13,914 nt of DNA, from positions 1 through 13,914 of the forward strand of contig JARRQT010000065.1 of the NCBI GenBank assembly GCA_037381445.1. The letters run 5' to 3'. The DNA comes from Calditrichia bacterium (GTDB lineage Bacteria; Calditrichota; Calditrichia; RBG-13-44-9). The translations under genes were made by a program, and so were the position numbers. Position 1 is the first letter of the stretch. Each line of letters starts with the position of its first letter. Below are positions 1,710 through 7,758 of the stretch, one piece after another. A model generated the notes under the pieces. That model was not told where the DNA came from, did not search any database, and was given only the letters and a program-made list of their open reading frames with translations.

Positions 1710-3457
1710 AAAATGAAAAGAAGACGCAGAGGAGCGGGGCGTGGCTGTGTGTTCATGCGCTGGAGCAACTGCCTGTTCAATACACCTTTGGCATTCCGGG
1801 TGTGCAGAATACAGAACTCTATGACGAATTGAACAAATCGGAGAAAATCCAGCCCGTGTTGGTGACCCACGAAGGCGGGGCCGCCTTTATGGCGGACGCC
1901 ATCAGCCGGACATCCGGCCAGATCGGCACGCTGGTCATTGTGCCTTCCGCCGGCGTCACCCACGCCATGAGCGGGATCGCGGAAGCCTACCTGGACGGCA
2001 TTCCCATGCTGATCATCTCGGGCGGCATCCGGCGGGATATTGACAAGTCTTTTCAACTGCACGAGTGGGACCAGCACCGCGCTCTGGCGTCGGTCACCAA
2101 AAAGACCACTTTAATCCGGAAACATGAGGAAATTGTGCCGGCAATTTTTGAATCCTACCGCGTTGCCGTGTCCGGCGAGCCGGGACCGGTTTTTATCGAA
2201 ATTCCGGTGGACATCCAGTTGTTTCGCGGGGAGGTGGCTGAATTGCCGGCATTCGAAATGCACCGCGAGACCGCAGAGATCGACCCCGCCAAAATTAAGC
2301 AGGCGGCGGACCTGATCAAAAAATCAAAATCGCCGGGAATGTTTTTAGGATGGGGCTGCCGGGACTGCACGGCGCAGGCGGTGGAATTGGCGGAACTGCT
2401 GGGGGCGCCGGTCTCCACCACCCTGCAGGGACTCAGCGTGTTTCCGGGGAATCATCCGCTGCATGCCGGCATGGGATTCGGTCCCAGCTCGGTGCCGGCG
2501 GCAGAGAATGCCTTTAAAAACTGTGACTGCCTGCTGGCTGTCGGCACCCGTTTCGGAGAGATTCCCACCGGCAGTTTCGGCGTTACGGTACCGGAAAACC
2601 TGATTCATATCGATATAAATCCCAATGTTTTCAATAAAAATTATCCGGCAAAGGTGGCCATCGAGGGAGACAGCGGTGAGGTCCTCACTGAATTAATCGC
2701 GGCCCTGAAAAAGGAGAATTACAAACCGCGGGCGTCAGGTCAGAAAATAAGAGAACAGATCCGGACGGACAAGGAAAAATATGTGAAGGAATGGAAATCT
2801 TCGCTGAACGAGCGGGTGAATCCGGCCCTGTTTTTCGAAGAATTGCGCAGGCAGTTGGCCGATGATGCCATTATGGCAGTGGACGACGGCAATCACACTT
2901 TCCTGGCGGAAGAGCTTTTCCCGGTATTGCAGTCCAGGTGCTTTATTTCTCCCACCGATTTCAACTGCATGGGGTACTGTGTGCCGGCAGCCATTGGGGC
3001 CAAACTGGCCAATCCCGGCGGACAGGTGGCGGGAATTGTGGGTGACGGAGCATTTCTGATGACCTGCATGGAAATACTGACCGCTACCACCCAAAATGCC
3101 GGAGTGGTTTATTTTGTATTTCATGACGGGGAGCTTTCCCAGATTTCGCAGGGACAGGAGATTCCCTACAACCGCAAGACCTGCACTATTTTGGGTGAAA
3201 TCAAACTGGAAGGTGTTGCCAGGGCAACCGGCGCTGCTTTTCTGGAAATGGCGCACAACAGTGACATCGAAACCCTGATCGGTTCTGCCCTGCAGACTGC
3301 CGCCAAAGGCCAGCCGGTGATCGTGGATGTGAATATCGATTACTCCCGCCGCACCCGCTTTACCAAAGGTGTGGTCGGCACCGTGCTGAAGAGATTTCCC
3401 CTGGGGGACAAGGTCAGGTTTGTGGGAAGGGCGTTTTGGCGGAAGGTAAGGGGGTAG
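1706..3457 (+). CDS. Thiamine diphosphate-dependent enzyme, acetolactate synthase large-subunit-like, ~583 aa
   Basis: TFGIPGVQN, catalytic Glu in THEGGAAFMADA, PGPVFIEIPVD, central IHIDIN, MGYCVPAAIGAKLA and ThDP motif GDGAFLMT. Start 1706 overlaps the upstream stop (ATGA), with AGGAG just upstream. Confidence 0.9.
   Translation: MKNEKKTQRSGAWLCVHALEQLPVQYTFGIPGVQNTELYDELNKSEKIQPVLVTHEGGAAFMADAISRTSGQIGTLVIVPSAGVTHAMSGIAEAYLDGIPMLIISGGIRRDIDKSFQLHEWDQHRALASVTKKTTLIRKHEEIVPAIFESYRVAVSGEPGPVFIEIPVDIQLFRGEVAELPAFEMHRETAEIDPAKIKQAADLIKKSKSPGMFLGWGCRDCTAQAVELAELLGAPVSTTLQGLSVFPGNHPLHAGMGFGPSSVPAAENAFKNCDCLLAVGTRFGEIPTGSFGVTVPENLIHIDINPNVFNKNYPAKVAIEGDSGEVLTELIAALKKENYKPRASGQKIREQIRTDKEKYVKEWKSSLNERVNPALFFEELRRQLADDAIMAVDDGNHTFLAEELFPVLQSRCFISPTDFNCMGYCVPAAIGAKLANPGGQVAGIVGDGAFLMTCMEILTATTQNAGVVYFVFHDGELSQISQGQEIPYNRKTCTILGEIKLEGVARATGAAFLEMAHNSDIETLIGSALQTAAKGQPVIVDVNIDYSRRTRFTKGVVGTVLKRFPLGDKVRFVGRAFWRKVRG
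3372..3457 (+). repeat. Direct repeat 1, copy in the intact gene (3' end of the ALS-like gene including TAG)
   Basis: 86 bp matching 4296-4381 at 80/86 positions by hand alignment. The first 19 bp (TGGTCGGCACCGTGCTGAA) are identical. Confidence 0.97.
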
Positions 3458-3638
3458 CAGTCGATTAGGGGAGCGAGTTCTGCCAGATTGTAATAATGAT
3501 ACTGCAAGAGAGCAAAGTCATAAGACTATAAAATCGATGTTTCTGTACAATGCAGTTTGAGAATTGCAACAGTCCGGCAGCATTGCAGATCTGCTAAGTG
3601 CAGGAATTTCAAATACCTCGATTTCATATGGCATTGGA

Positions 3639-3920
3639 TCAAGGCCGTTTTTCAGGATCCTGCCTATTGTCAAATACTGCATGTACTATGATTTCTGCTT
3701 TTTCTATGGAATAAAAAATAGAGAATGGAAACCTTCTGATAATAAACCTTCGAAGATTCGAGTGACTGATCTCGCACATTTCGGGAAAGTCGTTTATTGC
3801 TAATATCGCCACTTCAATACAATCAAGGAATTCGAACCCGAGGCCTCGCCTTTGCCTTTCATACCAGGTGAATGCGAATTCCAAATCATTTCTGGCGCGT
3901 TCTGTATAACGAAGTCTCAC
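3639..3920 (-). CDS. Type II toxin, RelE/ParE family, 93 aa
   Basis: MRLRYTERARNDL...WYERQRRGLGFEFLD...RRFPFSIFY...IIVHAVFDNRQDP is the characteristic RelE/ParE pattern. It overlaps the upstream antitoxin by 4 nt (3917-3920). Confidence 0.9.
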   Translation of the reverse strand: MRLRYTERARNDLEFAFTWYERQRRGLGFEFLDCIEVAILAINDFPEMCEISHSNLRRFIIRRFPFSIFYSIEKAEIIVHAVFDNRQDPEKRP

Positions 3921-4144
3921 TTATTCTTTTTCCTTATTTCGTTGTGAACATGCTTCCAGTCATGTAGTATCATTTTGCCGCTCTTATATTCTTCATATCG
4001 CTTATCCAATTCTGCTTTTTGCCATTCAGGTAAGGGCAGCTCTGAATTGCTGCGGGCTATTGAATCCCAAATATCCTCAACAAGAATGAGCTTTTCAGGC
4101 AAATCCAATTTGTCAATCTCTTTCATGATTTCATCTGGTTTCAT
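3917..4144 (-). CDS. Putative addiction-module antitoxin (TIGR02574 / Unstab_antitox-like), 75 aa
   Basis: EKLILVEDIWDSI...LPEWQKAELDKRYEEY...W pattern. AGGAG RBS at 4152-4156; directly upstream of the RelE/ParE gene. Confidence 0.88.
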   Translation of the reverse strand: MKPDEIMKEIDKLDLPEKLILVEDIWDSIARSNSELPLPEWQKAELDKRYEEYKSGKMILHDWKHVHNEIRKKNK

Positions 4145-4180
4145 ATGCTTTCTCCTGCTAGGTTATTTGAATTTAACGAA

Positions 4181-4209
4181 AATATAATAAAATCAGCTAT
4201 TAATAACAA
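4181..4209 (-). promoter_or_regulatory. Putative sigma70-type promoter of the TA operon
   Basis: On the minus strand, TTGTTA (4209-4204), a 17-nt spacer and TATATT (4186-4181), 36 nt upstream of the antitoxin ATG. The AT-rich context makes a chance match possible. Confidence 0.5.
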
Positions 4210-4295
4210 ATTGAATGGCCGAAATGATAGAATTGCAGCGTGTCGGAGTCTTTATGGATATCGGTTGCTCCTATTAGATGCGATTTACGAAAGAC

Positions 4296-4381
4296 TGGTC
4301 GGCACCGTGCTGAAAAGATTTCCGCTGGGCGACAAGGTCAGGTTTGTAGGAAGGGCGTTTTGGAGGAAGGTGAGGGGGTAG
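4296..4381 (+). repeat. Direct repeat 1, orphan copy of the ALS-like gene 3' end; decayed homology extends upstream to ~4254
   Basis: Encodes the same peptide VGTVLKRFPLGDKVRFVGRAFWRKVRG* as the intact gene, with 6 synonymous differences. 4254-4295 aligns to 3329-3371 with many substitutions, an in-frame TAG and a 1-nt deletion. Confidence 0.95.
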
Positions 4382-6656: not shown

Positions 6657-6755
6657 AATATTTACTCCTTTCGTTCTGTGAATGGTTGAACACCACTATT
6701 TTGAATGTATGCGTTTCTCTCCAATGCCAAAAAAATATAGATCACAATAAAAGAC

Positions 6756-6969
6756 AGCAAATGGAAACCAGGGGGCATTGCCTGCCATCTTTATTGAGTG
6801 ATCCTAAACGCAGCTCTTCAGTCACCTTAATCACTACCATCGTCGAGTCATCTGTCAGCGCCGCTTTGCCGTTCTGGAAAAGCCTACGGATAATTTGCCG
6901 GGCCGGTTTATTCGCATGTCTTTCCAATGATTTTATGATATTTTCGGTGCCGCAGGTTTCCGGATTTTC
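6756..6969 (-). repeat. Direct repeat 2, orphan diverged copy of the phosphatase gene 3' end plus ~40 bp of its downstream sequence
   Basis: Aligns to ~7529-7758, with identical blocks of 28 bp (6804-6831 = 7578-7605) and 22 bp (6898-6919 = 7687-7708). About 85% identity over 54 aligned codons by hand count, a 15-nt in-frame gap and a lost stop codon. Confidence 0.93.
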
Positions 6970-7004
6970 CTAATCTTTTCTATGATTGGATCATTTGTCT
7001 CCAT
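6933..7004 (-). pseudogene. Truncated small partner (putative antitoxin) gene of the PIN toxin
   Basis: ATG at 7004 follows the reconstructed PIN stop (7008-7006), with AGGAG at 7015-7011. METNDPIIEKIRKIR resembles the 'DPIIEEIRKIR' small proteins I recall downstream of this PIN subfamily. It runs into the orphan repeat after ~15 codons and stops. Confidence 0.6.
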
Positions 7005-7005
7005 T

Positions 7006-7478
7006 TTATTCTCCTACTGATTCGATGGGTATTACCAACAAAGGCACAAGAAGGTCAGAATGTTATTCACACGCCCGATGTGAGGGTACTATTGGCGTGT
7101 GCTAAATACCTGCAATTCCGGTAAGCAAAAAATCGTATCTATGATATGCAGCCAAAGCAAGACGGAGGGGTTTTTCACTGGATCGGACGGCATTACTTTC
7201 TGCTGAATGCAGAACCGGACAATCTCGAGGATTTCCGGATCAATTCCCATCAGCGGCAGATCATTCATTAGGTTCAATACCTTCCTGCATTTGTCAGCAG
7301 CATAATCCCTGGAGTTTAGCCCATCCAGCACAGCGGGGCCGGTAGCTGCAGAAAATTTTTTTCTTTGATAGTCCCGCCACACCTTAGTCCATTCCCGACG
7401 AGCTGCCGCGTCCGGTTCGGATTGTTCATTGCAATAAAAGCCGGGAATGGTGGTCTCAATGTATACCTTGGGTCTCAT
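7006..7478 (-). pseudogene. PIN-domain (VapC-like) toxin pseudogene with about four frameshifts
   Basis: N-terminus MRPKVYIETTIPGFY is PIN-type. C-terminal motifs are recovered in successive frames: LRLALAAYHRYDFLLT, (W)NCRYLAHAN, HIGRVNNIL and LLVPLLVIPIESVGE*. Confidence 0.82.
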
Positions 7479-7528
7479 CGTAGATTCAAGTTTTTATCTA
7501 TTGGAAATTAAACTCTACTTCGAAGGAT

Positions 7529-7758
7529 AGCAAATGGAAAGTAGGGGGGCGTCGCCAACTATCTCACTATTCTGATTCTAAACGCAGCTCTTCAGTCACC
7601 TTAATGACCACCATTGTCAAATCATCAGCTAGCGGCGTATTCCCGGCCCAGCTTTTGCCGTCCTCGTAAAGTCCCCGGATAATTTCCCGGGCCGGTTTAT
7701 TCGCATGTTGTTCCAGTGATTTCATGACATTTTCGGTGCCGTAGGTTTCCCGCTTTTC
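7529..7758 (-). repeat. Direct repeat 2, copy in the intact phosphatase gene and its downstream flank
   Basis: Partner of 6756-6969 (offset 774 bp on one side of the 15-nt gap and 789 bp on the other). Confidence 0.93.

Follow-up and report, generated by a model that had tools for sequence, protein, structure and literature searches.

The stretch of DNA considered here (the window) is the whole 13,914-nt contig C65 of the 5.1-Mb, 401-contig genome G000, a fragmented metagenome-assembled genome (MAG) of an uncultured sediment bacterium of the class Calditrichia, and has a GC content of 47.7%. Within it katG, a minus-strand gene for a 723-aa catalase-peroxidase (4485..6656, above the cut-offs of TIGR00198 and NF011635), lies between two genes that point towards it, an acetolactate-synthase-like (ALS-like) gene on the left and a phosphatase gene on the right. 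Both of these genes have a second copy of their 3' end on the katG side, and each pair of copies encloses a toxin-antitoxin (TA) module in a mirror layout around katG. A BLAST comparison of the window with itself gave exactly two non-self matches, with E-values of 6e-32 and 2e-44, which are the two duplications; an earlier note on this DNA had placed them correctly, and they are not due to chance. Both repeats (~128 and ~235 nt) exceed 30 bp and are unique in G000, and the inserts measure ~0.8 kb on the left and ~0.55 kb on the right, i.e. <20 kb. No mobility genes, including integrase and transposase families, were found among the 12 window open reading frames (ORFs) scanned against Pfam (some small ORFs lay outside the scan), as the earlier note had said of recombinases and insertion sequences. 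The genome encodes three tyrosine recombinases, all outside the window, and the window gave no match to tRNA or Rfam elements. Among the compared genomes, none of which belongs to the same genus, G009 is the closest (RpoB 90%, the best of 16 family members).

The left host gene (1706..3457, plus strand) codes for a 583-aa TPP enzyme with the Pfam TPP_enzyme N, M and C domains that scores under the NCBIfam cut-off for a true acetolactate synthase. Its end is present as the gene copy of the left repeat (3330..3457, plus strand, with a core at 3372-3457 that ends at the stop codon) and again as an orphan 3' end at 4255..4381 on the same strand, with its core at 4296-4381 and a part decayed by a stop and an indel at 4255-4295. 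The 86-nt cores are 93% identical and show 6 silent and 0 missense differences over 28 codons (p=2.7e-4 against a neutral split), while the extension of the repeat towards ~3330 and 4255, which brings it to ~128 nt in total, is far more decayed: 12 of its codons contain a stop along with 5 silent and 8 missense differences. The six core differences lack A-specificity, and adenine mutagenesis of the kind known from diversity-generating retroelements was rejected. Between the copies lie a ParE/RelE-family toxin gene (3639..3920, minus strand; PF05016 with 35.4 bits at a cut-off of 23) and an antitoxin gene (3917..4144, minus strand; TIGR02574/PF09720, putative addiction module component; GC 38%), both with open frames here. 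Both genes score above their Pfam cut-offs and overlap by 4 nt, which is consistent with a type II TA gene arrangement, and the pair's GC content, 38-41%, is low compared to 55-60% for the genes on either side. The left junction has decayed too far to be located. In G009, which is 96% complete, neither the ALS-like gene nor its FAD partner described below was found; a 46-nt fragment of the ALS-like end lies at a contig end, after an unrelated gene (L564:5142-5188, end of G009:C75). Of 4 informative silent sites, this fragment agrees with the left orphan at 3, which hints weakly that the orphan could be the older resident gene end.

The right host gene (7567..10056, minus strand) codes for a PP2C-type phosphatase with CBM20, 7TM and SpoIIE domains assigned by Pfam, and among 85 other genomes only G009 has an orthologue (81%). 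The gene copy of the right repeat (7523..7758, minus strand) comprises the last ~190 nt of the gene plus 45 nt, so the repeat is a phosphatase 3' end, as the earlier note described it, that also extends 45 nt past the stop codon, which the note had missed. Its counterpart consists of a neutrally decayed orphan 3' end with a 15-nt deletion (6794..6969, minus strand) and an orphan-side copy of the 45 nt (6750..6793, minus strand), which contains the upstream motif of katG and aligns with the DNA upstream of katG in G009. The two copies of the ~235-nt repeat (7523-7758 and 6750-6969) are 76% identical with gaps and 86% identical over the best 105 nt, and differ by 9 silent and 15 missense changes over two blocks (pS ~0.24, pN ~0.12), the ratio of ~2:1 predicted for decay of one copy. 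When the G009 orthologue is taken as reference, 11 of 14 missense differences are specific to the orphan, and the first two 'missense' differences fall inside the junction. The unequal decay of the two duplications noted earlier, silent-only on the left and with missense changes on the right, is thus borne out. The enclosed module is broken: a PIN (VapC-like) pseudogene (7006..7478, minus strand) has a frameshift near codon 103 and further breaks, and its antitoxin-like partner is a stub of the first 16 codons (6957..7004, minus strand), the last 13 nt of which form the junction and agree with the phosphatase gene at 11 of 13 positions, a microhomology at the joint. Full-length partners of 60-62 aa come after the closest PIN relatives. 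PIN was assigned by homology, with PF01850 in 3 of 17 homologues, and the partner belongs to no named family.

According to the earlier note the orphans abut katG, yet ~100 nt including a strong hairpin lie in between on the left and ~95 nt of DNA upstream of katG on the right. The GC-rich hairpin behind katG (4389..4429, minus strand; z -4.59, with 0 of 200 shuffles folding as well) is likely the katG terminator and is also present behind katG of another genome, G035. Several observations bear on the history of katG itself. It is present in 42 of 86 genomes searched, and with a GC3 of 0.74 it ranks near the 99th percentile among 2074 long ORFs. A quick tree of 27 rows places it as sister to G009 katG (SH-aLRT 100), in agreement with RpoB; comparing the katG tree with a species marker, a check proposed in the earlier note, thus gave the same nearest genome for both. 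DNA similarity to G009 spans 4436 to 6775 and extends into the post-stop portion of the right repeat. Because katG is sister to that of the nearest genome and its upstream motif is inside the right duplication, it is likely a resident bystander and not cargo. In G009 the motif precedes katG with no phosphatase there, and of the two motif copies the one beside the PIN gene resembles G009 more closely than the one beside katG does; phosphatase and katG were therefore likely adjacent before the PIN module arrived, and the module likely landed just inside the katG upstream region. The ALS-like gene, katG and the phosphatase are not syntenic in G009, whose katG scaffold is gapped just behind katG.

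The upstream motif resembles an extended -10 promoter and is regarded as a putative promoter. Its -10-like hexamer is degenerate in the copy on the katG side (6750-6765) and intact in the copy before the PIN pseudogene (7523-7540), and katG might be read from this upstream copy, through the PIN pseudogene. As a genome-wide site the motif was rejected: it has 3 matches at ≤1 mismatch, the third being the start region of an unrelated gene. Elsewhere, two ~120-nt repeats enclose katG in G035 (L211:6694-6815 and 10502-10624), and a family member assembled as a single contig has katG in two pieces ~526 kb apart (G012:C1:247735-248628 and 773932-774363). In another Calditrichia genome a ParE/RelE-type gene and its likely partner lie directly behind katG (L565:2470-3086, G033:C9), with no flanking repeat seen in L180.

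The layout is real and not a misassembly. Three runs from two studies contain the stretch, two of them (X2 and X3) from one sample of the other study, while runs X4 and X5 hold next to nothing of it. Run X1 contains one unbroken piece (249-4459, 2 differences) spanning the gene, the TA pair and the left orphan. X2 and X3 contain a strain ~95% identical to the window with both orphan ends and both TA modules (3449-4524 in X3, 6582-9659 in X2). This second strain shows a 1-nt deletion near codon 19 of parE, 7 substitutions and a 1-nt insertion in the left orphan core, and an identical 129-aa truncation of the PIN gene. Since it carries both sides with its own mutations, both insertions are older than the strain split, and neither modules nor orphans appear to be held intact by selection. 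The earlier description of one intact and one decayed module is accurate for the window, where the left frames are open and PIN is frameshifted, and does not extend to parE in the second strain. A 78-aa ORF running through the left orphan was dismissed as a functional candidate, its frame being broken in that strain. In the sample with X2 and X3 (S2) a minor strain identical to the window (4229-4384) occurs beside the dominant ~95% strain.

Copied gene ends are rare in this genome. With a 300-nt query, a non-coding copy was located ≤5 kb downstream for 7 of 2992 gene ends, and with a 120-nt query 5 of 3263 gene ends are copied. Four of the seven are clear, the other three being 41-50-nt matches that stop well before the stop codon. 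Apart from the two window ends, the clear cases are the ~175-nt 3' end of an hsdM-like N6-methyltransferase gene repeated on either side of a Fic-domain gene that precedes a GIY-YIG gene (L279:1788-1970 and 3217-3397, G000:C323), and ~205 nt of a pyridine-nucleotide oxidoreductase gene end repeated (~70%) around a ZIP zinc transporter gene (L284:1972-2177 and 3266-3470, G000:C5), a cargo that is not a TA module. The hsdM-Fic layout is the same as in the window, with 8 silent differences on 15 sites and 4 missense differences on 60. A dedicated system acting genome-wide, for which the earlier note had suggested a count of this kind, is rejected by these numbers. The ALS-like end is no general hotspot either: among homologous loci with enough flank 0 of 117 duplicate the coding end, and the downstream repeats of any kind in 7 of these 117 are all at or behind the stop codon. 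None of 18 phosphatase-family loci, only one of them an orthologue, has such an end copy within 1.5 kb.

TA loci were also compared across the phylum. Searching G000 alone with Pfam models was not sensitive enough to count its TA genes (PF05016 failed to recover parE of the window and PF01850 gave 1 match), and the survey sets 150 TA loci (PF09720, PIN subfamily, PF05016 and PF01850) against 102 controls (cold-shock, HU, glyoxalase and cupin). The loci are the best matches per family together with 80 TA and 20 control matches hand-picked from the lists. Loci whose flank was shorter than 900 nt (32 TA, 22 control) were excluded, as were 2 duplicate TA loci, 2 cupin loci that overlapped TA loci, and both TA loci of the window. 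Direct repeats of at least 30 nt enclose 33 of 150 TA loci and 1 of 102 controls (a tandem paralogue). The enclosing repeat is the 3' end of a neighbouring gene in 7 of the 150 TA loci and in none of the controls (Fisher p=0.04, overstated by kinship), with host genes including a zinc dehydrogenase, an amidohydrolase, a LuxR-type regulator, a pRiA4b ORF3-like gene and a serine hydrolase. G031 and G035 contain two related TA modules (74% DNA identity); the genes at which these lie are unrelated, and each of these genes has its own end duplicated. Six other gene-end cases pooled show 10 silent differences on 117 sites and 13 missense differences on 417. Inspection by eye confirmed one of three automatic 5' calls, L258, as a true gene start; L458 is another, but was filtered from the survey. 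The signal may mark recent small insertions rather than TA cargo as such, as the controls are long-resident genes. No shared end motif was seen by eye in 12 aligned cases, for which no motif search was made.

We consider it slightly better than an even chance that the two TA modules entered separately as small circles, with one crossover each by host recombination and katG as bystander. A module would have joined a 130-235-nt piece of a neighbouring gene to form a small DNA circle, a single crossover by the host's own recombination would have integrated the circle and left the module between copies of the landing site, and the spare gene-end copy would then have decayed. On the left the gene end may have come from a slightly different allele, with the orphan as the older resident end. 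Insertions would survive mainly if the host gene is left whole, and the duplicated pieces would accordingly be gene ends, gene starts or intergenic DNA. The occurrence of the latter two speaks against the notion in the earlier note that gene 3' ends serve as exchange anchors. Its proposal that TA modules are gained here together with a duplicated gene end and with no local recombinase stands and recurs in the phylum survey; the hotspot and the genome-wide scale it had in mind do not. The mirror arises because both neighbouring genes point towards katG and is likely a local coincidence rather than a new machine; the closeness of the two events is likely a sign that this accessory region is plastic.

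Nobusato et al. (2000) reportedly described insertion with long target duplication for restriction-modification (R-M) genes. This route, documented by Furuta, Abe and Kobayashi (2010, PMC2853133), is already known, and what the earlier note put forward as the best candidate for an undescribed system matches it; new here is the TA cargo. As in that paper, a small selfish module without mobility gene lies between variable direct repeats of >30 bp taken from the landing site, which sometimes overlap a gene end. Unlike there, the cargo consists of type II TA pairs and not of R-M genes, by which that class is defined, two cases face each other across katG, and no empty allele was present among the compared genomes. 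The authors suggest DNA breakage by R-M systems as a common cause, and a PIN RNase would not supply such breakage. In E. coli, linear DNA that was trimmed and recircularised entered by a single crossover and gave partial duplications of 109-950 bp in 56 of 60 clones (Amarir-Bouhram et al. 2011, PMC3240628). Those products likewise have a partly duplicated gene segment with foreign DNA between the copies, but come from a laboratory plasmid construct in conjugation with homology built in, while the route in our window would be a natural one reconstructed from the layout. With regard to integron cassette arrays, in which attC sites flank the cassettes, the repeats of the window are coding gene ends and the window gave no Rfam match. 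In the literature searched, which left out most subscription journals and the supplements of PMC2853133, no publication describing long target duplications at TA modules was found.

Several points weigh against entry as two circles. No empty-site allele occurs in any compared relative (none of the same genus) or run, and no joint skips either insert. The joining of the module to a piece of its target, which a circle needs beforehand, enters only as an assumption. The polarisation of the left copies by the G009 fragment rests on 4 sites, the left orphan of the second strain is not silent-only, and the two layers of this orphan, decayed at the 5' side and clean at the 3' side, need later gene conversion or a divergent donor. 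In the phylum survey many of the 33 repeats are attC-like, multi-copy intergenic or of low complexity, and kin are not independent. Two of the four clear cases in the genome share one intervening gene, for which we estimate ~1 in 250 under a uniform null; independent events explain this poorly, and the mirror pairing is explained in part only. The pairing would be explained best, in one step that also accounts for the co-location of two rare events, if a single complex event had combined a katG-bearing allele, with both gene ends, and an allele that lacked katG and carried both TA modules. The patchy distribution and high GC3 of katG fit such a block, as does G009, where an ALS-like end fragment occurs without its gene and a gap follows katG, so that katG might move jointly with the gene end; the katG tree is also compatible with a donor from within the genus. 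We nevertheless consider this block, which the earlier note had offered as its second model, unlikely. The phosphatase flank on the TA side carries katG upstream sequence, the allele thus having once had katG there, and katG is sister to that of G009; the two modules and orphans differ strongly in decay, and single-sided gene-end duplications surround TA modules without katG at 7 other loci.

The right side is accommodated equally well by repair in place, in which a foreign TA fragment is captured at a break and the far end is re-primed on the sister chromosome, by microhomology at a point upstream of the break, with copying of 130-235 nt, so that neither circle nor donor allele is needed; layout alone cannot separate this from a circle. 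The pS:pN ratio of ~2:1, the orphan-specific missense changes and the junction microhomology on the right agree with it, and so do the related modules at unrelated genes and the pooled differences of the six other cases. The silent-only left core and the 8 silent and 4 missense differences of the hsdM-Fic case suggest two coding alleles instead, and we rate break repair as quite unlikely. Homology-facilitated illegitimate recombination during natural transformation, with one end anchored in the host gene and the other fused back into that gene by microhomology, was one of two routes for the gain of modules suggested in the earlier note. It leaves ~3-10 bp of microhomology at the joint, as found at the right junction (11 of 13 nt), and the genome encodes ComEC, which alone is no proof of competence. 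The same route is invoked for the exchange of Vibrio type VI secretion effector-immunity modules, where a homologous anchor, a microhomology joint and an orphan remnant of the earlier resident are seen as here (PMC9711863); those loci are dedicated exchange sites with conserved anchors and recipient DNA is normally deleted, while the targets here are unrelated genes. Moreover, illegitimate recombination is described in PMC3240628 as deleting about as much DNA as is inserted, the 56 duplications among 60 E. coli clones having arisen by another route, whereas our product is a duplication with no visible loss of recipient gene, and a donor with the same gene already beside the module would be needed. 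This makes the route improbable. Integrative elements such as phages and integrative and conjugative elements with att sites in coding genes can carry a replacement 3' end of the gene. They too would leave an intact gene end on one side and a displaced end on the other, with silent differences between them, TA modules can outlast other cargo, and the tyrosine recombinases elsewhere in the genome might act in trans to target gene ends and restore them. That remnants of such elements lie here is highly improbable, however, given that no recombinase was found among the scanned window ORFs, the inserts are <1 kb with repeats of variable length, the targets are unrelated accessory genes without conservation, none of the 117 ALS-like loci has the same duplication and the 12 aligned cases share no end motif by eye. 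Misassembly or a strain chimera, the former named in the earlier note among its refuting conditions, which a MAG of 401 contigs and at least two strains in sample S2 might suggest, is scarcely credible, largely refuted as it is by the unbroken X1 piece, the second study's strain with both sides and its own mutations, and copies that are only 76-93% alike.

How TA modules without mobility genes enter chromosomes is poorly explained. A 2009 review calls TA modules highly mobile and the fixation of acquired ones not understood (PMC2654758). Insertion with long target duplication, free of any recombinase and independent of DNA cutting by the cargo, could be a routine entry of TA modules into Calditrichota chromosomes. 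The host gene would stay whole, the module could receive a copied promoter from the host such as the katG motif, and the R-M route would extend to addiction modules generally; this wider claim we hold tentatively, at somewhat less than an even chance. Its cargo would then not have to cut DNA, unlike in the idea offered for R-M systems. If ~5% of the TA loci of the phylum keep a copied neighbouring gene end, such copies would be a countable marker of recent gains.

Some further patterns were noted. The ALS-like gene lies downstream of a PRK12834 FAD dehydrogenase gene, with which it makes up a gene pair (window 33-3457); an FAD homologue is present in 113 of 174 ALS-family loci from many phyla. 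In two close homologues, L158 and L026, a 46-47-nt repeat starting from the ALS-like stop codon occurs 7 and 4 times within 0.9 kb. Around TA genes attC-like sites were seen in L251, L304, L324 and L456 (genomes G039, G040 and G055), likely cassette arrays. In G000 itself multi-copy non-coding repeats surround genes on contigs C94, C86 and C318 (L280:3132-5723, L281:2118-2960 and L291), namely a nucleotidyltransferase pair, a GIY-YIG gene that follows two tRNA-Ser genes, and several small ORFs.

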